Virus record (IMG/VR): IMGVR_UViG_2526164598_000016
DNA length: 40,941 bases
DNA from: a virus
Lineage: Duplodnaviria > Heunggongvirae > Uroviricota > Caudoviricetes
Direction: 5' to 3' (one strand)
Within the stretch, counting starts at the first letter, position 1; each line of letters begins with the position of its first letter. Of this stretch, positions 4,362-25,734 are shown piece by piece. The notes beneath the pieces were generated by a model that did not search any database, was not told the origin of the DNA, and saw only the letters and a list, made by a program, of their open reading frames with translations. The position numbers were made by a program, and so were the translations under genes.

Positions 4362-4927
4362 TATCGCGTCCTCAACAATGAATTTTGTGATGCGGTGCCT
4401 GGTGCCTCCAGGTGACGTTAACCAGTTAACAATTAACGCCGGATACAGAGAATCCACCCATAACACTGTTTTTGGTTTTAACTGTTCCGCGTGCGCTCAG
4501 CCGCATTCACCACATCACAAAATTCACTTTAAAAAGGGCGGCAGAGCAGTCACGGAGTAAAACTGATACCGCCAAACGTCACCAGAAAATTGATAACAGA
4601 GGGCGTTGCAGCGGGGTTGTCACTTAAGCGTATGGTCAACCTGACAACCCGGTGTCCTCAACGGGGGAAGGAATAACCCCGCCATACTTACCGCCGCGCC
4701 ATTTCGCGGATTGCCACAACCGGAAGCGCACGGTCGACGAAAATTTAACGACAGGCTATCTATGAACCAGCTACCTCGCCGTGCGCTTTCGCGTTATGGT
4801 CTGACTTTTCAGGGAAATATCCTTTCAGTAAACTGTCAGTGCCGGATTCTTATCCGTGTCCGGCGCACGACCACACGCTGTCACGAGAGGTCTCCATTCT
4901 CAACCAGTAACCTCAATGGAGGATAAA

Positions 4928-12879: not shown

Positions 12880-13056
12880 TTGCTGCGGGTGCTTGAGGCT
12901 ATCTGCCTCAGGCATGAACACCAAAAGGCAGATAGAGAAAAGCCCCAGTTAACATTACGCGTCCTGCAAGACGCTTAACATTAATCTGAGGCCCAATCTA
13001 TGTCTCACAAATGTAGGTTAGCCTCTTACGTGCCGAAAGGCAAGGAGAAGCAGGCT
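12880..13056 (-). ncRNA. Candidate hok leader with antisense (sok-like) regulatory region
   Basis: Leader has complementary elements CTATCTGCC / GGCAGATAG and a TGAGGC…GCCTCA hairpin upstream of hok, as in hok/sok loci; antisense promoter not pinpointed. Confidence 0.3.
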
Positions 13057-13212
13057 ATGAAGCAGCAAAAGGCGATGCTAATCGCCCTGATCGTCATCTG
13101 TTTAACCGTCATGGTGACGGCACTGGTAACGAGGAAAGACCTCTGCGAGGTACGAATCCGAACCGGCCAGACGGAGGTCGCTGTCTTCACAGCTTACGAA
13201 CCTGAGGAGTAA
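13057..13212 (+). CDS. hok: Hok/Gef-family type I toxin (51 aa)
   Basis: MKQQKAMLIALIVICLTVMVTALVTRKDLCEVRIRTGQTEVAVFTAYEPEE matches the Hok family (TM helix, …TRK.LCE.R…EV.AF.AYE…). Confidence 0.8.
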   Translation: MKQQKAMLIALIVICLTVMVTALVTRKDLCEVRIRTGQTEVAVFTAYEPEE

Positions 13213-14721: not shown

Positions 14722-15096
14722 ATGCGTATAGAGTTTGTTTTGCCTTACCCGCCGACGGTGAACACCTACTGGCGACGTCGTGGCAGCACATATTTTGTAT
14801 CAAAAGCCGGTGAGCGTTATCGCCGGGCTGTGGCGCTTATTGTTCGCCAGCAGCGGCTGAAATTAAGCCTGTCCGGAAGGCTGGCGATAAAGATTATTGC
14901 CGAGCCACCGGATAAGCGCCGCCGTGACCTGGACAATATTCTGAAAGCGCCGCTGGATGCGCTGACGCATGCGGGGTTGCTAATGGACGATGAGCAGTTT
15001 GATGAAATCAATATCGTTCGTGCTCAGCCAGTATCTGGTGGACGTCTGGGGGTGAAGATTTACCCCATAATGCTTGCAGGGCAGGTCAAAAAATGA
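14722..15096 (+). CDS. rusA: Holliday junction resolvase RusA
   Basis: MRIEFVLPYPPTVNTYW…RDLDNILKAPLDALTHAGLL.DDEQ…; characteristic RusA sequence. Confidence 0.9.
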   Translation: MRIEFVLPYPPTVNTYWRRRGSTYFVSKAGERYRRAVALIVRQQRLKLSLSGRLAIKIIAEPPDKRRRDLDNILKAPLDALTHAGLLMDDEQFDEINIVRAQPVSGGRLGVKIYPIMLAGQVKK

Positions 15097-15914
15097 AACT
15101 GGAAGATTTACCGAAATACTACTCCCCAAAATCCCCCGGCCTGACTGATGCATCGGCCTCAACGTCGAAAGATGCGCTGAGTATCACTGATGTGATGGCC
15201 GCGCAGGGCATGACACAGAATCGGGCTGAGATGGGGTTTTCTGCGTTCCTTGGGAAAATGGGCATTAGTATGAATGACAGAGAGCGGGCAACAGAATTGC
15301 TGACAGAATATGCACTCAGTCGGTGTGATCGCGTGGCGGCGTTAAGAAAACTCCCGGCAGAAATAAAACCGGTAGTGATGCGCATTATGGCTTCGTACGC
15401 TTTTGAGGATTATGCCCGTAGCGCAGCGAGTAAAAAGCAGTGCCCTTGTTGCTATGGGGAAAAATTTATTGAAAGCGTAGTTTTTACAAACAAGGTCCAG
15501 TATCCGGATGGTAAGCCGCCGGTATGGGCAAAGTGTACGAAAGGTGTGTATCCGTCTTACTGGGAAGAATGGAAAAAAGTCAGGGAGGTGGTAAAAGTTG
15601 CCTGTCCGGAGTGTGGCGGAAAGGGTGAGGTTTCCACCGCCTGTAAGGATTGCCGTGGGCGTGGTGTCGCCATTCATCGTGAAGAGTCGGTAAAACGTGG
15701 TATGCCTGTTATCAGAGACTGCCAGCGTTGTGGTGGTCGTGGCTGTGAAAGACTACCATCAACGGAGGCATTTAATGCCATATGCGAAGTGACGAGTGCT
15801 ATCACGCTTGATACGTGGAAAAAATCAGTGAAACGCTTTTACGATACGTTGGTGGTTCGGTTTGACATTGAAGAGGCATGGGCGGAGCGGCAGTTAAAGA
15901 GGGTAACGCGATAG
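15093..15914 (+). CDS. Q: Late-gene antiterminator Q (zinc-finger type)
   Basis: 273-aa ORF with CPCC…CPECGGKG…CKDCRGRG…CQRCGGRG Cys clusters, directly upstream of a PR'-like promoter and terminator. Confidence 0.8.
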   Translation: MKLEDLPKYYSPKSPGLTDASASTSKDALSITDVMAAQGMTQNRAEMGFSAFLGKMGISMNDRERATELLTEYALSRCDRVAALRKLPAEIKPVVMRIMASYAFEDYARSAASKKQCPCCYGEKFIESVVFTNKVQYPDGKPPVWAKCTKGVYPSYWEEWKKVREVVKVACPECGGKGEVSTACKDCRGRGVAIHREESVKRGMPVIRDCQRCGGRGCERLPSTEAFNAICEVTSAITLDTWKKSVKRFYDTLVVRFDIEEAWAERQLKRVTR

Positions 15915-15919
15915 TGTTG

Positions 15920-15947
15920 TTGATTTTTCCCGAATCTGTGGTAAATT
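15920..15947 (+). promoter_or_regulatory. Late promoter PR' (-35 TTGATT, 16-nt spacer, -10 TAAATT; qut region follows)
   Basis: TTGATTTTTCCCGAATCTGTGGTAAATTTGCTCTAACGATGGG closely resembles the lambda PR' -10/initial transcribed region (recalled). Confidence 0.6.
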
Positions 15948-15993
15948 TGCTCTAACGATGGGCGTTTTATGCCTGACGTTAGAAGATTTTTTA

Positions 15994-16018
15994 CACCCCG
16001 CCGCCTGGCGGGTTTTTT
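15994..16018 (+). terminator. tR'-like intrinsic terminator
   Basis: CCCGCC-GCCT-GGCGGG hairpin followed by TTTTTT. Confidence 0.6.
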
Positions 16019-16140: not shown

Positions 16141-16338
16141 ATGCTAAAACAGCAGGATATGACAGAAACCGCCAGAGTAGTGTTTAATGAATTAAGCGTT
16201 ACCGAACCGGCGACAGTCGGGGAGATAGCGCAGAATACTTACCTTTCACGCGAACGCTGCCAGTTAATACTGGCCCAGCTGGTTATGGCGGGTCTGGCAG
16301 ACTATCAGTTCGGTTGTTACAGACGCCTTCCGCAGTGA
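16141..16338 (+). CDS. Small winged-helix-like DNA-binding protein (66 aa)
   Basis: Internal ATG with AAAGGGAAAAAG upstream; …TVGEIAQNTYLSRERCQLILAQLVMAGL… HTH-like. Confidence 0.45.
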   Translation: MLKQQDMTETARVVFNELSVTEPATVGEIAQNTYLSRERCQLILAQLVMAGLADYQFGCYRRLPQ

Positions 16339-16348
16339 AGGCTTTTTT
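16325..16348 (+). terminator. Second intrinsic terminator, overlapping the small gene stop
   Basis: GCCTTC-CGCAGT-GAAGGC followed by TTTTTT. Confidence 0.5.
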
Positions 16349-16488: not shown

Positions 16489-17538
16489 ATGCTTAATACT
16501 GTAAAAATATCCAGTTGTGAGTTAATCAACGCCGACTGCCTGGAATTTATCCGGTCGTTACCCGAAAATTCTGTTGACCTGATAGTCACGGACCCGCCGT
16601 ACTTTAAAGTGAAGCCTGAGGGCTGGGATAACCAGTGGAAGGGCGACGATGATTACCTGAAGTGGCTGGACCAGTGTCTGGCGCAGTTCTGGCGGGTGCT
16701 GAAACCTGCCGGAAGTCTTTACCTGTTCTGTGGTCATCGCCTGGCATCTGATATCGAAATCATGATGCGTGAACGCTTCAGTGTGCTGAACCATATTATC
16801 TGGGCGAAGCCGTCCGGACGCTGGAACGGATGCAACAAGGAAAGCCTGCGGGCGTATTTCCCCGCCACAGAGCGCATTCTGTTCGCGGAACATTATCAGG
16901 GGCCGTATCGTCCGAAAGATGCCGGGTATGCGGCGAAGGGCAGTGCACTGAAACAGCATGTGATGGCCCCGCTGATTTCTTACTTTCGTGATGCGCGCGT
17001 GGCCCTGGGGATAACGGCAAAACAGATTGCAGATGCCACAGGAAAGAAAAACATGGTGTCGCACTGGTTCAGTGCCAGTCAGTGGCAGCTACCGAACGAA
17101 AGCGATTATCTGAAATTACAGTCGCTGTTTGCCCGGGTGGCAGAAGAGAAACATCAGCGCGGTGAACTGGAAAAGCCCCACCACCAGCTGGTGGATACGT
17201 ATACGTCACTGAACCGGCAGTATGTGGAGCTGCAGAGTGAATATAAGCATCTGCGGCGGTATTTTGGTGTGACGGCGCAGGTGCCGTACACGGATGTGTG
17301 GACACATAAACCGGTGCAGTTCTATCCCGGGAAACATCCGTGCGAAAAACCGGCAGAAATGCTGCAGCAGATAATCAGCGCAAGCAGTCGTCCGGGTGAC
17401 CTGGTTGCAGATTTTTTTATGGGCTCAGGTTCAACGGTAAAAGCTGCACTGGCGCTCGGGCGTCGTGCGATTGGCGTTGAACTGGAGACCGGACGTTTTG
17501 AGCAGACAGTCAGGGAAGTTCAGGATTTAATCGTTTGA
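16489..17538 (+). CDS. DNA methyltransferase, beta-class N6A/N4C type (DPPY before the C-terminal FxGSGS motif)
   Basis: …LIVTDPPYF… near the N-terminus and …DFFMGSGST… near the C-terminus (permuted motif order). Confidence 0.85.
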   Translation: MLNTVKISSCELINADCLEFIRSLPENSVDLIVTDPPYFKVKPEGWDNQWKGDDDYLKWLDQCLAQFWRVLKPAGSLYLFCGHRLASDIEIMMRERFSVLNHIIWAKPSGRWNGCNKESLRAYFPATERILFAEHYQGPYRPKDAGYAAKGSALKQHVMAPLISYFRDARVALGITAKQIADATGKKNMVSHWFSASQWQLPNESDYLKLQSLFARVAEEKHQRGELEKPHHQLVDTYTSLNRQYVELQSEYKHLRRYFGVTAQVPYTDVWTHKPVQFYPGKHPCEKPAEMLQQIISASSRPGDLVADFFMGSGSTVKAALALGRRAIGVELETGRFEQTVREVQDLIV

Positions 17539-17587: not shown

Positions 17588-17663
17588 GGCCCTTTAGCTC
17601 AGTGGTGAGAGCGAGCGACTCATAATCGCCAGGTCGCTGGTTCAAATCCAGCAAGGGCCACCA
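17588..17663 (+). tRNA. tRNA with CAT anticodon (Ile2/Met-type; ileZ-like of Stx phages)
   Basis: Cloverleaf by hand: acceptor stem GGCCCTT/AAGGGCC, anticodon loop CTCATAA, encoded CCA end. Confidence 0.85.
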
Positions 17664-17763
17664 TCACAAACCGCCATTAGCTTATCAGGAAGAGCAGACG
17701 ACACGATAACAGGGTTGTTGGTGCGGGGGCGGGTCCCCGATGGCGGTCCATTATCGGTATTCA

Positions 17764-17840
17764 GCGTTGTTAGCTCAGCCGGACAGAGCAATTGCCTTCT
17801 AAGCAATCGGTCACTGGTTCGAATCCAGTACAGCGCGCCA
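17764..17840 (+). tRNA. tRNA-Arg (anticodon TCT)
   Basis: Acceptor stem GCGTTGT/ACAGCGC, anticodon loop CTTCTAA, encoded CCA end. Confidence 0.85.
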
Positions 17841-17947
17841 TATTCATTCTTCCAGATTCCTTTCGGCAGAGCCTTATACTGAAATATACCTGGCTCAGGA
17901 TATTGTTGAAAATATTATATGTTTGTCAAAAATAAAAGTTCTGTTAA

Positions 17948-18304
17948 GTGTTGATTGAGTGTTTGTTATACGGTCTAATGGTTTTTTCAGCATTAAATAT
18001 TTATCATTCATATGGTGTGGGTAGAGTGAATATTGATGAGGCGTCGGGGTGTTTCATCCTTAGGCAGCGTATTGATATAGTCAATGCAGAACGAGCAAAG
18101 GCCTTCAGCCGTTTGACAGTTTTGTTCTGTACTCCTGATCGTCTTTCGGGAAGAGACGTTATTATTCTGAATAGTGATGCTATACAGAGGGTTTGCGATG
18201 AGTTCATGGTGGCTAATTCAGAATTATTTGCTCTTGTTCAGGAGTACAACAGAATAGCCAGGACCTGTGGTATGGATGAACTTCGGATTACTCATCTGGG
18301 GTAG
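17948..18304 (+). CDS. Hypothetical ORF in the cargo slot (118 codons from GTG; alternative ATG at 17978)
   Basis: Open frame only; no convincing SD; unknown product. Confidence 0.3.
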   Translation: MLIECLLYGLMVFSALNIYHSYGVGRVNIDEASGCFILRQRIDIVNAERAKAFSRLTVLFCTPDRLSGRDVIILNSDAIQRVCDEFMVANSELFALVQEYNRIARTCGMDELRITHLG

Positions 18305-18696
18305 ATACATATCTGGATTATCACCGGTTACGGTAAAAAGTGATTGCTTACTGTTTTTGTGAATGGCATTGCAGCAGCCGGATAATGTCAGTGCTGGCTG
18401 ACGGTGTGCTGGTGGCGGGTGTGGTGGTTGCTGCTTTCCCGTTGCTGAAAAAGAAAACGCCAGACTGTTAGCCGGGTATCAGTTAGCGGGAGAAATTTTT
18501 AAATACTTCACAATTCAGGCGGTTGACTGTTGTCTGGTTTGCGGGGAGTTTGTTAAAAGAAACTGGCATGGTGAATCCCCCTGTGCGGAGGGGCAATCAG
18601 CGAGTAGGTATATGGGATAATCGCGGATTCAGGTGCTGGTACTGAATTCACCGGGAGGCACCCGGCACCATGCAATGGCACATAGCGCCACTCTCC

Positions 18697-18731
18697 AGCC
18701 CCTCTCCGGAGGGGCTGTTTATATTGATTTT
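18697..18731 (+). terminator. Hairpin plus T-rich tract (plus-strand terminator-like) inside the cargo slot
   Basis: AGCCCCTC-TCCG-GAGGGGCT followed by GTTTATATTGATTTT. Confidence 0.45.
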
Positions 18732-18760
18732 GTCAGATGTGAGTAAACTCCTTATGGACT

Positions 18761-19087
18761 TTATTGTTTTAGCCCATAAGGACATATTTGCAGAGTGCAA
18801 CGGTTATTAAAGCATTCATTCAATACGTTATCTGTATTTGTAGGGCATTCCTGGCTGTTTTTGATTAAATTCCAGAATGTTTTATTGAATGGTACTACGT
18901 TGTAAATGGTTACAGGTAGCACTTTGTTATTGAGCATGATGCCTGTGTGAGTCAGTGTAAATATACTTTCAGGAGGTAAGAAAGCATCCGATTGATACCA
19001 GATTATTAATTTTATTTTACTCCATATGACTGAAAAAGATATTCCGCATGATGGCTGGATAACTGTATCAATCACAATCCACTTCAT
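18761..19087 (-). CDS. Hypothetical Cys-containing protein (108 aa) in the cargo slot, opposite orientation to late genes
   Basis: ATG preceded by AAGGA at 7-nt spacing (reverse-complement reading); AT-rich codon usage; four Cys in the C-terminal third. Confidence 0.35.
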
Positions 19088-19347
19088 TTAGTTTCCTTGT
19101 TTATGCCTTGCTGGTGATGTTCTGAAAAGTATAAATGATATTTTTGATTGTAAACCATAGAGCAGAATTATTTTTCTGATGTTGTTTATTGTTTATTTAA
19201 ATGCAGGGTGGTTTATATCTCGTCTTGTAGTTTATCCATGCATATCTGCTTGATGATGAGGTTTTTAATTAAGGTATGGTTTTGTGTTTTTTCTGTATTA
19301 CATGTCAGGTATTTTAAAGAATCATTTTTCAGATGGTGGAAAGAACC

Positions 19348-21201
19348 ATGGCATTTAAACACTATGATGTTGTCAGGGCGGCGTCGCCGTCAGATCTTGC
19401 GGAAAAGCTGACACATAAACTGAAAGAGGGCTGGCAGCCGTTTGGTAGTCCGGTGGCCATAACCCCTTATACCCTGATGCAGGCGATTGCAGCAGAAGGT
19501 GATGTGGTCGTCAGTGGTGCAACTGAGCCGGAGTGGTACTACGTCATCGTACTGGCCGGGCAGTCCAATGCCATGGCTTACGGTGAAGGGCTTCCGCTTC
19601 CGGATTCATACGATGCGCCCCATCCGCGCATTAAGCAACTGGCCCGTCGTAACACAGTGACTCCCGGTGGTGAAGTATGCGTATTTAACGACATCATTCC
19701 TGCTGACCATTGTCTGCATGATGTTCAGGATATGAGTACGATTAACCATCCCCGGGCTGACCTGAGCAAAGGGCAGTACGGCTGTGTCGGACAGGGCTTA
19801 CATATTGCCAAAAAACTGCTTCCGTATATCCCTAATAACGCGGGGATCCTGCTGGTACCATGCTGTCGTGGTGGTTCGGCATTCACCCAGGGCACGGAGG
19901 GGACATTCAGCGAGTCCACGGGGGCCAGTCAGGATTCGGCTCGCTGGGGAGTGGGTAAGCCGTTATATCAGGATCTGCTTTTCCGCACGAAGGCAGCATT
20001 GCAGAAAAACCCGAAAAACGTTTTGCTGGCGATATGCTGGATGCAGGGGGAATTCGATATGACGAATGCCAGTTACGCCCAGCAGCCAGCAGCATTTCTT
20101 GCAATGGTACAGCAGTTCCGTGCTGACCTTGCCGGGCTGGCGGCGCAGTGTCACGGTGGAAGTCCGGCATCAGTCCCCTGGATTTGTGGCGACACGACAT
20201 ACGCGTGGAAACAAGAACACGGTACGCAATATGAAGTGGTATATGGTGCATATAAAGGTAAAGAATCCCAGCAGATTTATTTTGTTCCCTTTATGACCGA
20301 TGGTAGCGGAGTTAATACACCGACAAACAACCCGTCAGAAGATCCTGATATTGTCGGGTCTGGTTATTACGGTTCGGCATCCCGAACGAACAAAAACTGG
20401 GTATCATCAAATCGCCCGACGCATTTCAGCTCATGGGCGCGTCGTGGCATTATTCCCGATCGTATGGCAACCGCTATTCTGAACGCAGCCGGGCGCACCT
20501 CAGCTTTCATCAGTGGTAAGGCACCGGAAATCAAACCCTCGCCCGGCGGCAACACGCCATCGGGGCCGTCTGAAGATGCATCCGTACGCACAATCTCCCT
20601 GTTGCCGACAGCCGGAGAGGCTGCTGCGCAGGGCTGGACCATTAAGGACGGCGGAATTCAGTTGTCGGGTGGTGTATTTAAGATCGCCAAGCAGAGCAAT
20701 AAAACCTGGTCCCTGATGCATCCGGTGGATGACGCAGTCTCCCTGCTGACACGGGGTGGCAGACTGAGCTGTAAGTTTCGACTGTCAGGCGCACTGACCA
20801 ACAACCAGTTCGGCCTGGGAATTTATCTGTATACCGATGTAGCGTTACCTGACGTCGTGGCGATGACCGGGACTGGTAACCCGTTCCTGATGTCGTTCTT
20901 CACCCAGACCACAGACGGCAAACTGAATCTGATGCATCACAAGAAAGCAGGAAACACAAAGTTGGGCGAGTTCGGGAATTACAGTAATGACTGGCAGACG
21001 CTGGAACTGGTGTTCACCGCCGGCAGTGCCACGGTTACTCCGAAACTGAATGGAGTGGCTGGCCCGGCATTCCAGGTCATAAAAGACAGTCTGACACTGG
21101 GGCTGAATGCGCTGACGCTGACGGATATTACCAAAAATGCAGCGTATGGCGTTGAGATAGAAAGTCTGGTGCTGGAGATAAATGCACCGGCATCATCATA
21201 A
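19348..21201 (+). CDS. nanS: NanS-p-like sialate O-acetylesterase (N-terminal DUF1737-like region, SGNH/SASA hydrolase core)
   Basis: GQSNA motif (…VIVLAGQSNAMAYGEG…); matches prophage nanS-p genes found downstream of stx (recalled); ATG at 19348 with GGAAAGA SD. Confidence 0.8.
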   Translation: MAFKHYDVVRAASPSDLAEKLTHKLKEGWQPFGSPVAITPYTLMQAIAAEGDVVVSGATEPEWYYVIVLAGQSNAMAYGEGLPLPDSYDAPHPRIKQLARRNTVTPGGEVCVFNDIIPADHCLHDVQDMSTINHPRADLSKGQYGCVGQGLHIAKKLLPYIPNNAGILLVPCCRGGSAFTQGTEGTFSESTGASQDSARWGVGKPLYQDLLFRTKAALQKNPKNVLLAICWMQGEFDMTNASYAQQPAAFLAMVQQFRADLAGLAAQCHGGSPASVPWICGDTTYAWKQEHGTQYEVVYGAYKGKESQQIYFVPFMTDGSGVNTPTNNPSEDPDIVGSGYYGSASRTNKNWVSSNRPTHFSSWARRGIIPDRMATAILNAAGRTSAFISGKAPEIKPSPGGNTPSGPSEDASVRTISLLPTAGEAAAQGWTIKDGGIQLSGGVFKIAKQSNKTWSLMHPVDDAVSLLTRGGRLSCKFRLSGALTNNQFGLGIYLYTDVALPDVVAMTGTGNPFLMSFFTQTTDGKLNLMHHKKAGNTKLGEFGNYSNDWQTLELVFTAGSATVTPKLNGVAGPAFQVIKDSLTLGLNALTLTDITKNAAYGVEIESLVLEINAPASS

Positions 21202-21332
21202 AAAGTGAGCCAGTCAAATGGAAGGTATCGTTAAACTCACCGGTAGTGTCAGTGGGTCGTCTGAGATGCCTGCATGAGTTATCAGAGCCATCAGTACTTA
21301 ACTGGTGGCTTTTTTTATTGTTGTCAGCTTCC

Positions 21333-21340
21333 GGATAACG
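21333..21340. repeat. Target-site duplication GGATAACG (left copy)
   Basis: Identical 8-mer directly flanks both IS ends (second copy at 23783-23790). Confidence 0.8.
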
Positions 21341-21411
21341 GTAAGCGTACAGCCTGAACCGTCTGGTCAGAATCTGACAAATTAGACAAAGTGGTGTCCA
21401 CCAAATAAGTA

Positions 21412-21813
21412 GTGGGAACCAAAGTGTCAGATATGCAGAAAAATGTGACTCCCGGCAGGCGAAAAGGCTGCCCTAATTATCCTCCCGAATTTAAACAGCA
21501 GCTCGTTGCTGCCTCCTGTGAACCCGGGATATCCATCTCAAAACTTGCTCTTGAAAATGGCATTAACGCCAATCTGTTGTTCAAATGGCGACAACAATGG
21601 CGCGAGGGAAAGCTGCTATTACCTTCTTCAGAGAGCCCCCAGCTACTTCCTGTGACTCTCGATGCAGCTGCCGAACAGCCAGAATCGCTCGCAGAGGACC
21701 CGGAAACCCTCAGTATCAGCTGTGAGGTAACGTTCCGGCACGGGACGCTCCGCTTCAATGGCAATGTCAGCGAAAAGCTCCTGACTCTGCTGATACAGGA
21801 ACTGAAGCGATGA
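21412..21813 (+). CDS. IS66 accessory protein TnpA (orf1); alternative ATG start at 21433
   Basis: HTH-containing small ORF typical of the first IS66 gene. Confidence 0.75.
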   Translation: MGTKVSDMQKNVTPGRRKGCPNYPPEFKQQLVAASCEPGISISKLALENGINANLLFKWRQQWREGKLLLPSSESPQLLPVTLDAAAEQPESLAEDPETLSISCEVTFRHGTLRFNGNVSEKLLTLLIQELKR

Positions 21814-22157
21814 TCCCGTTACCTTCCGGGACCAAAATTTGGCTGGTTGCCGGTATCACCGATATGAGAAATGGCTTCAACGGCCTGGCTGCGAAAGTAC
21901 AAACGGCGCTGAAAGACGATCCCATGTCCGGCCATGTTTTCATTTTCCGGGGCCGCAGCGGCAGTCAGGTTAAACTGCTGTGGTCCACCGGTGACGGACT
22001 GTGCCTCCTGACCAAACGGCTGGAGCGTGGGCGCTTCGCCTGGCCGTCAGCCCGTGATGGCAAAGTGTTCCTTACGCAGGCGCAGCTGGCGATGCTGCTG
22101 GAAGGTATCGACTGGCGACAGCCCAAGCGGTTGCTGACCTCCCTGACCATGCTGTAA
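21810..22157 (+). CDS. IS66 TnpB (orf2)
   Basis: [27 protein letters not shown]… typical IS66 orf2; ATGA-coupled to orf1. Confidence 0.85.
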
Positions 22158-22206
22158 ATCTCTTTATCCTGGTTGTCACAGAATAAGCCCGGTAAAATAC
22201 GGGCTT

Positions 22207-23745
22207 ATGAACGACATCTCTTCTGACGACATCTTCCTGCTGAAACAGCGCCTGGCCGAACAGGAAGCGCTGATCCACGCCCTGCAGGAAAAGCTGAGCA
22301 ACCGGGAGCGCGAAATAGACCATCTGCAGGCGCAGCTGGATAAACTCCGCCGGATGAACTTCGGCAGTCGTTCCGAAAAAGTCTCCCGCCGTATCGCACA
22401 AATGGAAGCCGATCTGAACCGGCTTCAGAAAGAGAGCGATACGCTGACTGGTAGGGTGTATGACCCGGCTGTACAGCGTCCGTTGCGTCAGACCCGCACC
22501 CGTAAGCCGTTCCCTGAATCACTACCCCGTGACGAAAAGCGACTGTTGCCTGCGGCGCCGTGCTGCCCGAACTGCGGCGGTTCACTGAGCTATCTGGGCG
22601 AGGATACCGCCGAACAGCTGGAGTTGATGCGTAGTGCCTTCCGGGTTATCCGGACGGTACGGGAAAAACATGCCTGTACTCAGTGCGATGCCATCGTGCA
22701 GGCACCTGCACCTTCGCGGCCCATCGAGCGGGGTATCGCCGGACCGGGGCTGCTGGCCCGCGTGCTGACCTCGAAGTATGCAGAGCACACCCCGCTGTAT
22801 CGCCAGTCAGAAATATACGGCCGGCAAGGTGTGGAGCTGAGCCGTTCACTGCTGTCGGGCTGGGTGGATGCATGCTGCCGGCTGCTGTCTCCGCTGGAAG
22901 AGGCGCTTCATGGCTATGTCATGACTGACGGCAAACTCCATGCCGATGATACCCCGGTCCAGGTACTGCTGCCGGGTAATAAGAAGACGAAGACCGGGCG
23001 GTTGTGGGCGTATGTTCGTGATGACCGCAATGCCGGGTCAGCGTTGGCACCTGCAGTGTGGTTCGCTTACAGCCCGGACAGAAAAGGCATCCATCCGCAG
23101 ACTCATCTTGCCTGCTTCAGCGGTGTGCTGCAAGCGGATGCGTACGCCGGGTTCAACGAGCTGTATCGCAATGGTGGGATAACGGAAGCTGCCTGCTGGG
23201 CTCATGCCCGCCGAAAGATCCACGATGTGCACGTCCGCATCCCGTCAGCACTGACGGAAGAAGCCCTGGAGCAGATCGGTCAGTTGTACGCCATAGAGGC
23301 GGATATAAGGGGAATGCCGGCAGAGCAGCGGCTTGCTGAACGTCAGCGAAAAACGAAACCGCTGTTGAAATCCCTGGAAAGCTGGTTGCGTGAAAAGATG
23401 AAAACCCTGTCGCGACACTCAGAACTGGCGAAAGCGTTCGCATACGCCCTGAACCAGTGGCCGGCGCTGACGTACTATGCAGATGATGGCTGGGCTGAGG
23501 CGGACAATAACATCGCTGAAAATGCGTTGCGGATGGTCAGTCTGGGCCGCAAAAACTACCTGTTCTTCGGTTCGGATCATGGAGGAGAGCGGGGAGCGCT
23601 GCTGTACAGCCTGATCGGGACGTGCAAACTGAACGGAGTGGAGCCAGAAAGCTACCTCCGCTATGTCCTTGACGTCATAGCCGACTGGCCGATAAACCGG
23701 GTCGGCGAACTGCTCCCCTGGCGCGTAGCACTGCCGACTGAATAA
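22207..23745 (+). CDS. IS66-family transposase TnpC
   Basis: 512-aa ORF with N-terminal leucine zipper, CxxC…CxxC zinc ribbon and DDE-type core, as in IS66 transposases. Confidence 0.9.
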
Positions 23746-23782
23746 CACATCCCCGTCAATACGGTTCTTGCTGCACGCTTAC

Positions 23783-23790
23783 GGATAACG
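23783..23790. repeat. Target-site duplication GGATAACG (right copy)
   Basis: Matches 21333-21340. Confidence 0.8.
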
Positions 23791-23801
23791 GGAGACGGGG
23801 T

Positions 23802-24017
23802 ATGTACCAGATGGAAAAAATCACAACAGGTGTGTCATACACCACGTCAGCGGTGGGAACGGGCTACTGGTTCCTGCAGTTGCTGGACAGGGTTTCCCCG
23901 TCTCAGTGGGCGGCAATAGGCGTGCTGGGGAGTCTGCTGTTTGGGCTGCTGACATATCTGACTAACCTGTATTTCAAAATCAGAGAGGACCGTCGTAAGG
24001 CTGCACGGGGAGAGTAA
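23802..24017 (+). CDS. S: Holin (lambdoid S-type, 71 aa)
   Basis: [29 protein letters not shown]…[15 protein letters not shown]; dual-start-like MYQM; GGAG SD at 23791-23794. Confidence 0.85.
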
Positions 24018-24021
24018 TTCA

Positions 24022-24372
24022 ATGACTCAAAACTATGAACTGATTGTGAAAGGGATCCGCAATTTTGAGAATAAAGTTACGGTAACTTTAGCGTTACGGG
24101 ACAAAAAACGCTTTGACGGTGAAATTTTTGACCTGGACATCTCGCTGGACCGTGTTGAAGGTGCCGCGCTGGAGTTTTATGAGGCAGCAGCCAGAAGGAG
24201 CATCAGACAGGTCTTCCTGGATGTTGCTGCCGGGTTATGTGAAGGGGATGAGCAGTCGCCGGAAAAGCGCCCCGTAATTTTAGAGGCGCAGAATGTGTGG
24301 ATAACCTACAAAGGAAAGCTACCAGGAAGAATTACTGGTTCTCTGAAGACTCCTCCGGAATCACAACCTTAA
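24022..24372 (+). CDS. Hypothetical protein (116 aa) between holin and endolysin
   Basis: ATG with GGAGAG SD; no assignable motif. Confidence 0.55.
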   Translation: MTQNYELIVKGIRNFENKVTVTLALRDKKRFDGEIFDLDISLDRVEGAALEFYEAAARRSIRQVFLDVAAGLCEGDEQSPEKRPVILEAQNVWITYKGKLPGRITGSLKTPPESQP

Positions 24373-24435
24373 GTCACTGACCGGAACAGATAAACCTGTC
24401 CGTGGGCAGAAACCGATAAATCCTGATAAATATCC

Positions 24436-24969
24436 ATGAACGCAAAAATCAGATACGGCCTGTCGGCTGCCGTTCTGGCACTGATTGCCGCTGGTGCGCC
24501 TGCGCCTGACATTCTCGACCAGTTTCTGGATGAAAAGGAAGGTAACCACACCACGGCATACCGTGATGGCGCGGGTATCTGGACCATCTGCCGCGGTGCC
24601 ATCCTGGTGGATGGCAAACCTGTCGTTCCGGGCATGAAGTTGTCGAAGGAAAAATGCGACCGGGTTAACGCCATTGAGCGTGATAAGGCGCTGGCATGGG
24701 TGGAGAAAAACATCAAAGTGCCATTGAGCGAACCCCAGAAAGCGGGGATCGCGTCATTCTGTCCGTACAACATTGGTCCCGGTAAGTGTTTCCCGTCGAC
24801 GTTTTACAGACGAATTAATGCTGGCGATCGCAGGGGAGCATGTGAGGCGATTCGCTGGTGGATTAAGGACGGTGGCAGAGACTGCCGTATTCGTTCAAAT
24901 AACTGCTATGGACAGGTCTCACGGCGTGACCAGGAGAGCGCGCTGGCGTGCTGGGGTATCGACAGATAA
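24436..24969 (+). CDS. R: SAR-endolysin (phage lysozyme with N-terminal signal-anchor-release segment)
   Basis: MNAKIRYGLSAAVLALIAAGAPAP… followed by a lysozyme-like core. Confidence 0.85.
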   Translation: MNAKIRYGLSAAVLALIAAGAPAPDILDQFLDEKEGNHTTAYRDGAGIWTICRGAILVDGKPVVPGMKLSKEKCDRVNAIERDKALAWVEKNIKVPLSEPQKAGIASFCPYNIGPGKCFPSTFYRRINAGDRRGACEAIRWWIKDGGRDCRIRSNNCYGQVSRRDQESALACWGIDR

Positions 24970-25127
24970 GCAGAATATTTTGCTGAAAATAAGGCATGGC
25001 CACGCGGGCGGATAACATGAAATCCTGCGAAGTGGCGAAACGTAAGTGAATAAAAGTAAAAACCCCGTTTGTTGGCACCAAGCGGGGTTTTGTGTTTCCT
25101 GACTCCGGAAAAGTCAAAGGAGAAAGT

Positions 25128-25265
25128 GTGTTTGATTTTAGCAAACTGATTCGGGAGATTCGAGTGGTGGCTGAAAAATTATCCACCTGGAAGTTCATTC
25201 TTATCTGGCTGGTGTTTGTGATTATGGCCTCCGGTTATTTCATCGGTCAGATACGCTGGTGGTGA
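25128..25265 (+). CDS. Possible 45-aa membrane peptide between R and Rz (not in ORF track)
   Basis: GTG start with AAAGGAGA SD; hydrophobic core WKFILIWLVFVIMASGYFIG; stop 1 nt before the Rz ATG. Confidence 0.35.
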   Translation: MFDFSKLIREIRVVAEKLSTWKFILIWLVFVIMASGYFIGQIRWW

Positions 25266-25266
25266 A

Positions 25267-25734
25267 ATGAACCGCGTACTGTGCGTGGTCATCATTGCCC
25301 TGCTGGTGGCCTGTGGTGCGCTTAGTCTGGGGCTGAATCATTACCGTGATAACGCCATAACCTACAAAGAGCAGCGCGATAAAAAAGTCAGTGAGCTGGA
25401 GCAGGCAAATGCAACCATTACTGATATGCAGCAGCGCCAGCGTGATGTTGCTGCACTTGATGCCAGATACTCGAGGGAATTAGCCGATGCGAGAGCTGAA
25501 AATGAAACTCTGCGCGCTGACGTTGCCGCTGGTCGTAAGCGCCTGCGGATCAACGCCACCTGCCCCGGTACCGTGCGTGAAGCCCCCACCACCTCCGGCG
25601 TGGATAATGCAACCGGCCCCCGACTGGCAGACACCGCTGAACGGGATTATTTCACTCTCAGAGAGCGGTTGATGCTGATGCAGAAGCAGCTGGAAGTGGC
25701 GCAGGAATATATCCGCACTCAGTGCCTGAAATAA
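25267..25734 (+). CDS. Rz: Spanin, inner-membrane subunit (Rz)
   Basis: N-terminal TM segment, coiled-coil-rich periplasmic domain, embedded Rz1 frame. Confidence 0.85.
   Translation: MNRVLCVVIIALLVACGALSLGLNHYRDNAITYKEQRDKKVSELEQANATITDMQQRQRDVAALDARYSRELADARAENETLRADVAAGRKRLRINATCPGTVREAPTTSGVDNATGPRLADTAERDYFTLRERLMLMQKQLEVAQEYIRTQCLK
25502..25672 (+). CDS. Rz1: Spanin, outer-membrane lipoprotein subunit (Rz1), embedded in Rz in another frame
   Basis: MKLCALTLPLVVSAC lipobox followed by a Pro-rich segment. Confidence 0.7.
   Translation: MKLCALTLPLVVSACGSTPPAPVPCVKPPPPPAWIMQPAPDWQTPLNGIISLSESG

Follow-up and report, generated by a model that had tools for sequence, protein, structure and literature searches.

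A Shiga toxin phage-like late region whose toxin slot carries iraL and is probably a mosaic of known prophage modules

Introduction

Which genes occupy the toxin position when a lambdoid prophage has the late region of a Shiga toxin (Stx)-converting phage and no toxin genes? This question is raised by the virus record IMGVR_UViG_2526164598_000016 of IMG/VR, a stretch of 40,941 nucleotides (nt) that was analysed as a whole and is called the window here. Its late region has the gene order of phage 933W, and the slot at 17841-19347 (1,507 bp), between the tRNA genes and nanS-p, holds cargo other than stx. An initial annotation, made from the DNA letters alone, had recognised this architecture correctly and had taken the cargo for a moron that was acquired separately and whose function was unknown. 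However, the oppositely oriented gene of the slot proved to be iraL, which encodes an RssB anti-adaptor of the IraM family. The slot as a whole is very probably a mosaic built of accessory modules already described for lambdoid prophages, and no novel moron.

The minus-strand gene of the slot is iraL

The 108-codon open reading frame (ORF) on the minus strand had been placed correctly at 18761-19087, and its Shine-Dalgarno sequence was intact. The encoded protein matched the NCBIfam model NF007393 (IraM) with 159.6 bits against a cut-off of 121, and the alignment covered residues 1-107 of its 108 amino acids (aa). The match to the IraM chain of PDB entry 8twd had an E value of 8.5e-32, with 51 of 78 residues identical (65%) across residues 1-78. 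Among the 13 residues through which IraM contacts RssB, 10 were identical in the window protein (I4, I6, W22, K26, I42, C14, F18, W30, I61 and Y62) and three were changed (T13S, H63N and I64V). The protein contained five cysteines, all conserved with IraM, and not the four that had been counted initially.

Throughout residues 1-108 the window protein was identical to WP_000871291.1, the protein of uropathogenic E. coli CFT073 and of O104:H4. RefSeq names this protein 'anti-adapter protein IraM', and it is encoded in the same slot of O104:H4 2011C-3493 and of the potB prophage of CFT073. The CFT073 gene is iraL (c1429, formerly ycgW); its product was reported to bind RssB and to stabilise RpoS in exponential phase, and its transcription start site (TSS) was mapped by rapid amplification of the 5' cDNA ends (5' RACE) (Hryckowian et al. 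2014, mBio, PMC4045071). The 108-aa product is thus experimentally characterised, and for this gene the assignment as cargo of unknown function does not stand. From the identity to the CFT073 protein, the window IraL would be expected to bind RssB and stabilise RpoS as well.

The coding region showed 2 nt differences from CFT073. At 18763 the plus strand has A in place of G, so that the coding strand reads TAA where CFT073 and O104:H4 have CAA. The window thus carries a Q109* allele, whose product ends three residues (QSP) early. The second single-nucleotide difference from O104:H4 was synonymous.

K-12 IraM (YcgW/ElbA) is the characterised paralogue. It belongs to the same NF007393 family as IraL and shares the structured core, a PmrD-like beta-barrel in IraM (residues 1-78), at the 65% identity given above, and the five cysteines. 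In contrast, K-12-type iraM matched iraL at only ~71% nt identity, in the coding region only, and the upstream regions of the two genes showed no homology. K-12 iraM adjoins the e14 prophage, is induced by PhoP and reacts to Mg2+ starvation, whereas IraL acts in unstressed exponential phase. The RefSeq label 'IraM' therefore hides a functionally distinct, log-phase-acting IraL.

A third allele of the IraM family was observed in O157:H7 strain 2571 (2069473-2069811). It was ~78% identical to iraL at the nt level and distinct from K-12 iraM (~71%). RefSeq labels it IraM as well, and it is apparently without separate characterisation.

Promoter and strand of iraL

The published 5'-RACE sequence of iraL, ACATCACCAGCAAGGCATAAACAAGGAAACCA, corresponded to the minus strand of the window from 19120 to 19089 at 31 of 32 bases, and sigma-70 promoter elements were located upstream of this start (Table 1). 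The 260 bp between the iraL start codon and nanS-p (19088-19347) showed 9 differences from CFT073. According to published data, iraL is expressed more strongly at 37 °C (compared with 23 °C) and in a fur mutant, and its promoter is in use while uninduced lysogens grow exponentially.

At 19183-19199, which is 63-79 nt upstream of the TSS, the iraL region contains a direct repeat resembling a PhoP box (TGTTTATTGTTTATTTA); since PhoP induces the paralogue iraM, this repeat deserves attention. The repeat was the sole match with at most one mismatch in the 41-kb window; however, 40 of 100 shuffled sequences gave at least one match, so it is statistically non-significant and is given as a lead only.

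Because iraL lies antisense to Q-driven late transcription, read-through from the late promoter cannot express it. This corrects the initial annotation, in which the position within the late operon was said to give the 108-aa ORF high expression on induction: the gene has its own mapped sigma-70 promoter. With regard to the features that mark a moron, the promoter and TSS of iraL matched the published mapping and its guanine-plus-cytosine (GC) content was 34.6% against 51.8% for the window, with no canonical terminator on its strand. The description as a moron is probably apt in that the minus-strand gene is oppositely oriented and of separate composition, but not in its function, which is known.

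Small genes and a small RNA on the late strand

The left part of the slot carries two small genes on the plus strand. A 118-codon ORF had been reported at 17948-18304. This ORF exists and holds a real gene, but the conserved frame is 92 codons long and begins at the GTG at 18026 (orf92). Two further E. coli prophages, L004 and L005, contain homologues with 68-72% nt identity; both are exactly 92 codons long and start at a GTG equivalent to window position 18026. The longer form from GTG 17948 was rejected, since its upstream 26 codons were unconserved in the homologues and CFT073 has GTA at 17948-17950. In this lineage the ATG at 17978, which gives the 108-aa form of the PHROG family, may also serve as start.

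The pairwise ratio of nonsynonymous to synonymous substitution rates (dN/dS) of orf92 against L004 and L005 was 0.23-0.27 in its own frame, whereas the two other frames gave 0.84-1.31, and differences at third codon positions were about twice as frequent as those at first or second positions. Hence orf92 is under purifying selection. It had no Pfam or NCBIfam match, and its family is very small: a set of 1.84 billion proteins contained ~20 clusters and 21 representatives, none of them named. The AlphaFold2 model of the protein was a predicted helical hairpin with helices at residues 3-35 and 50-81 and a predicted local distance difference test score of 85. The Foldseek search of this model against PDB returned generic coiled-coil matches only, none with E ≤ 0.001. 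RefSeq leaves orf92 unannotated in both O104:H4 and CFT073 despite this selection, and here the result is of use for annotation.

The gene next to orf92 encodes a DUF3927 protein, which scored 92.7 bits against a Pfam cut-off of 25 and also matched PHROG 1470 ('TciB-like'). It is annotated by RefSeq at the same place in O104:H4 and CFT073. A distant prophage (L008 4001-5063, GCA_002042945.1) showed the order tRNAs, orf92-family gene (95 aa), TerB-like gene, DUF3927, holins and endolysin, with no STnc100 element. This gene order indicates that orf92 and DUF3927 have been linked to the lysis cassette across a long evolutionary distance, and the same pairing there argues that they are long-standing residents of the position and not a recent acquisition. 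The neighbourhoods of distant orf92 members showed this same association with DUF3927 and the lysis genes and gave no hint of a function.

Downstream of DUF3927 we found a small RNA (sRNA) gene of the STnc100 family. The match to the Rfam model scored 132.4 bits against a gathering score of 47 (E 4e-30) and covered model positions 1-206, the full length. The hairpin and T-tract reported initially at 18697-18731 were present, but they are not a separate element: they form the 3' end of STnc100, and the T-tract follows the hairpin on the plus strand only. In 933W the order is stx2B, a member of the family at a distance of 75 nt, AsxR and nanS-p (see also PMC12370729). Since the same element follows stxB in Stx2 phages, STnc100 marks a conserved right border of the cargo position.

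The Stx-phage copy of STnc100 has been equated with the Hfq-binding sRNA EcOnc27/sRNA103 of enterohaemorrhagic E. coli, for which expression as a discrete RNA associated with Hfq is reported (PMC12711010), and the family is related to PasD of enteropathogenic E. coli (EPEC) (PMC12711010; bioRxiv 10.64898/2026.05.13.724894). By family membership, the window copy is a putative discrete RNA of the Hfq-binding type. Like the copies of Stx2 phages, it matched the model over its full length, directly preceded the nanS-p region and had the same terminator architecture. It differed in score (132 bits against 208 for 933W) and in being without one internal hairpin (model positions ~64-85). It also follows DUF3927 and not stxB, and the iraL module stands before nanS-p where 933W has AsxR.

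A 42-codon ORF on the minus strand (18553-18681) overlaps STnc100 in antisense and was treated as spurious. RefSeq lists this interval in O104:H4 and CFT073 as a partial 'hypothetical protein' pseudogene, which is probably an annotation artefact.

Search for Shiga toxin genes

The slot and the whole window were searched with StxA2 and StxB2 of 933W by tblastn. The results showed noise only, with best E values of 0.23-0.8. Megablast and blastn gave no DNA match to stx; their matches to Stx phages and O157 genomes were confined to ~18492-18722. None of the slot ORFs had an AB5-like Pfam match. All of these searches agree with the initial statement that the slot has no AB5-toxin-like ORFs. Remnants of stxAB, which the initial annotation had named as grounds against its reading, were also sought by alignment: none was detected, and as the tblastn, blastn and megablast results stayed at noise level, stx remnants in the slot were rejected. 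A Stx-converting prophage is defined by stxA and stxB in the interval from the tRNAs to nanS-p, and these two genes are absent here.

Distribution and mosaic structure of the slot

Of 5,426 complete E. coli genomes, 863 contained the full 1,507 bp with an identity of ~99% or higher, and 2,860 contained parts of the slot. An allele of the iraL type (≥95% nt identity) was the best match in ~1,419 records. The same slot content was carried by uropathogenic (UPEC), enteroaggregative (EAEC) and commensal-type genomes. The initial annotation had named, as a finding that would refute it, a conserved non-coding spacer shared by many stx-negative prophages. The segment is indeed conserved in hundreds of stx-negative prophages (the 863 genomes above), but it is coding and not inert.

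One of the closest counterparts was the potB prophage of CFT073, whose slot aligned to that of the window without gaps and with 22 mismatches in 1,507 nt (98.5% identity). Both prophages have tRNAs, orf92, DUF3927, STnc100, iraL and nanS-p in one slot, and both have the iraL promoter and TSS. The CFT073 prophage has three intact tRNAs, an IS200 element after Q, no methyltransferase gene and a truncated nanS-p. In the window there are only two tRNAs, the methyltransferase gene and nanS-p are both intact, an IS66-family element stands before S, and iraL is the Q109* allele. Compared with 933W, the late region had the same gene order and the same tRNA, STnc100, nanS-p and lysis modules. It differed from 933W in the absence of stxA and stxB, in a different type of Q with a methyltransferase gene inserted, and in its cargo of orf92, DUF3927 and iraL.

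Phages carried the two halves of the slot separately. Phage mEp460_ev081 had orf92, DUF3927 and the 5' portion of STnc100, which make up the left half, but no iraL, and the phage group of vB_EcoS-640R1 had the right half (STnc100, iraL and the start of nanS-p). Homology to mEp460_ev081 stopped inside STnc100 (~18674), and homology to vB_EcoS-640R1 began at its 5' end (~18510-18550), so that the window copy of STnc100 looks chimeric. Homology to 933W resumed essentially at the start of nanS-p, with 30-nt identity windows positive from ~19338.

In other prophages, 2 to 5 copies of STnc100 were found between successive cargo genes. This multi-copy arrangement suggests that STnc100 marks cassette boundaries. 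A wider idea, which we put forward tentatively and consider rather doubtful, is that STnc100 acts as a portable boundary, combining homology and a terminator, for the exchange of cargo (stxAB, orf92-DUF3927, tolA-like genes and iraL) in the Q-to-S slot. If it were true, a corollary would be that, on induction, Q-modified RNA polymerase runs through the STnc100 terminator and antisense over iraL, and the RpoS stabiliser is switched off at the commitment to lysis.

Two of the multi-copy cases are given here. In E. coli 2014C-4135 (L005 1666-1878 and 3637-4616), five STnc100 copies lay in the Q-to-nanS-p slot, four of them in tandem. In vB_EcoS-640R1 (L007 4561-4754 and 5030-5218), two copies flanked small ORFs just before iraL.

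Explanations of the slot

We propose that iraL is a lysogenic conversion gene which would be independent of Q and would not be expressed late. In the repressed lysogen its own sigma-70 promoter (TSS 19120) would drive leftward transcription. IraL would bind the response-regulator-like adaptor RssB, so that sigma-S (RpoS) is not handed over to ClpXP, and RpoS would build up in exponential growth and pre-arm the general stress response. The binding of IraL to RssB, the stabilisation of RpoS and the TSS were established by experiment on the identical protein and promoter of CFT073 (PMC4045071). The genes orf92 and DUF3927 would occupy the place of stxAB as small conserved late-region genes. Since these two genes and STnc100 point the same way as the late operon, their transcription by Q-modified RNA polymerase is expected, and the late transcript would cover all three. 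The modified polymerase would presumably ignore the STnc100 terminator, and the late antisense transcription may then interfere with iraL.

An independently acquired moron of unknown function, highly expressed through Q on induction, was the explanation given initially, and the low GC content and opposite orientation of the 108-aa gene on which it drew are real. The three co-oriented elements could be Q-driven, and orf92 and DUF3927 are without known function. However, the identity of the 108-aa gene with iraL, of known function and with a mapped sigma-70 TSS, refutes this explanation for that gene, whose antisense position also prevents expression by Q read-through, and hundreds of genomes contain the module in annotated form; we regard this explanation as very improbable. 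Hardly more credible is that the prophage is a decayed Stx-converting phage which lost stxAB by deletion or replacement and in which the slot is secondary filler. The 933W-like architecture would fit such a history, as would the retention of the STnc100 element that follows stx2B and the return of 933W homology at nanS-p. Yet neither protein nor DNA remnants of stxA or stxB were detectable. The genes in their place are under purifying selection or matched to a family, and they are paired upstream of the lysis genes in the distant prophage L008, in the shown stretch of which no stx is annotated. The occurrence of the same slot content in UPEC, EAEC and commensal-type genomes also speaks against toxin loss, and recombination inside STnc100 accounts for the shared border without a toxin-carrying ancestor.

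The points that weigh against our own explanation concern expression and the iraL allele. The strand of iraL has no canonical intrinsic terminator, as the hairpin at 18696-18731 has no U-tract in that direction. No convincing sigma-70 promoter was found directly upstream of the Rfam start of STnc100, so the RNA may be processed out of a longer transcript rather than made from an independent gene. The IS66-family insertion before S may disable or compromise expression of the late operon in this prophage, and if the operon is disabled, the Q-dependent part of the model is moot. The remaining point is the premature stop in iraL relative to the CFT073 and O104:H4 alleles. It could be taken to mean that the allele is non-functional and that the slot is without an active conversion gene. 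The single nonsense mutation is in favour of this, but it removes only three residues, and the promoter, the Shine-Dalgarno sequence and the remaining part of the ORF are intact. Moreover, K-12 IraM has 107 aa and is itself shorter than IraL at the C-terminal end. IraM residues 1-78 alone form a stable complex with RssB, for which the C-terminal tail is dispensable (IraM-RssB structure, PDB 8twd). On this analogy the loss of IraL residues 109-111 should be harmless, and the truncation is unlikely to matter, with the caution that IraL is reported to bind RssB differently, contacting only RssB's N-terminal domain. The Q109* allele would accordingly be expected to be active, and there is very little chance that it is a null allele.

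Our preferred explanation, a mosaic of described modules, thus describes a finding that is already known: every element is characterised (iraL), curated (STnc100 and DUF3927) or catalogued (PHROG 2873), and the module is common. From this result, the 'toxin slot' of lambdoid prophages can be seen to be a general site for cargo, which carries a host stress-response regulator in strains that are not Shiga toxin-producing E. coli.

Late-region layout and other observations

The features of the late region are collected in Table 1. The order Q, methyltransferase, two tRNAs, slot, nanS-p, S, R and Rz had been described initially and all of these elements were present. Three elements were new to the description: the DUF3927 gene (18340-18471), the IS66-family element (21341-23782) and the degenerate argN.

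Table 1. Features of the slot and the surrounding late region, with window coordinates
Feature	Coordinates	Strand	Basis or detail
Late antiterminator Q	15093-15914	+	Pfam PF03589 (Antiterm), E 6e-51
Putative tR'-like intrinsic terminator	15997-16012	+	GC hairpin CCCGCCGCCTGGCGGG then TTTTTTAT
N6/N4 DNA methyltransferase	16489-17538	+	Pfam PF01555, E 2e-44
tRNA(CAT), ileZ type	17588-17663	+	ARAGORN: Met; RefSeq and 933W: Ile
Degenerate remnant of middle tRNA-Arg (argN)	17664-17763	+	Alignment to argN of O104:H4 and 933W
tRNA-Arg(TCT), argO type	17764-17840	+	ARAGORN, Rfam
orf92, conserved small protein, PHROG 2873	18026-18304	+	PHROG match E 2e-70; dN/dS
DUF3927 mini-protein, 43 aa, one hydrophobic helix	18340-18471	+	Pfam PF13064
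STnc100-family sRNA gene, 190 nt	18537-18726	+	Rfam RF02076
Intrinsic terminator of STnc100	18696-18731	+	9-bp stem CAGCCCCTC/GAGGGGCTG then T-rich tail
iraL, RssB anti-adaptor of IraM family, Q109* allele (108/111 aa)	18761-19087	-	NCBIfam, PDB and RefSeq matches
iraL sigma-70 promoter	19120-19155	-	TSS 19120; -10 TATACT 19133..19128; -35 TTTACA 19155..19150; spacer 16 nt
AT-rich iraL upstream region, ~30% GC	19156-19347	-	Composition
nanS-p-type sialate O-acetylesterase	19348-21201	+	Pfam DUF1737 + SASA + DUF6645
IS66-family element, 2,442 bp	21341-23782	+	Pfam HTH_Tnp_1, TnpB_IS66, DDE_Tnp_IS66
S holin, P21-type	23802-24017	+	Lysis cassette (23802-25734); Pfam PF04971
DUF1327 gene	24022-24372	+	Lysis cassette; Pfam PF07041
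R lysozyme	24436-24969	+	Lysis cassette; Pfam PF00959
Rz	25267-25734	+	Lysis cassette; Pfam PF03245

The homologues of Q are named 'antitermination protein' in the RefSeq records of O104:H4 2011C-3493 and CFT073. The position of the first hairpin downstream of Q agrees with the pR'/qut/terminator arrangement of 933W, and by inference PR' would lie in 15915-15996. A second terminator-like hairpin with a T-run was present at 16325-16342.

The usual tRNA trio at such loci is ileZ-argN-argO. In the window, the ends of the middle gene aligned to argN of O104:H4 and 933W, while its centre (the region of the anticodon arm) was replaced, and ARAGORN and Rfam scans called no tRNA at 17664-17763. The identical version of this remnant was found in phage mEp460_ev081.

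The GC content of the slot was 39.7% against 51.8% for the window, which bears out the initial description of ~1.5 kb of low-GC DNA. The minima were in iraL, in the 260 bp upstream of iraL (30.4%) and in the 185 bp after the tRNA (31.4%), while the DUF3927 and STnc100 segments were of ordinary composition.

The IS66-family element has the ends GTAAGCG...CGCTTAC and is flanked by an 8-bp target duplication, GGATAACG, at 21333-21340 and 23783-23790. It was inserted between nanS-p and S, 11 nt upstream of the start codon of the holin gene and inside the late operon.

The ~140 nt from the nanS-p stop to the insertion (21202-21340) end in a hairpin plus T-run, gccatcagtacttaactggtggcttttttt. Their position is that of the PasA/PasC sRNAs in EPEC prophages, in the gap between esterase and holin genes; Rfam gave no match in this interval. 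Outside the late region, a DicF sRNA was found at 4536-4587 on the minus strand, and a sok antisense RNA at 12887-13062 on the plus strand, adjoining a hokD-like ORF (13000-13212). DicF and sok/hokD-like genes are typical of Qin/Rac-like lambdoid prophages.

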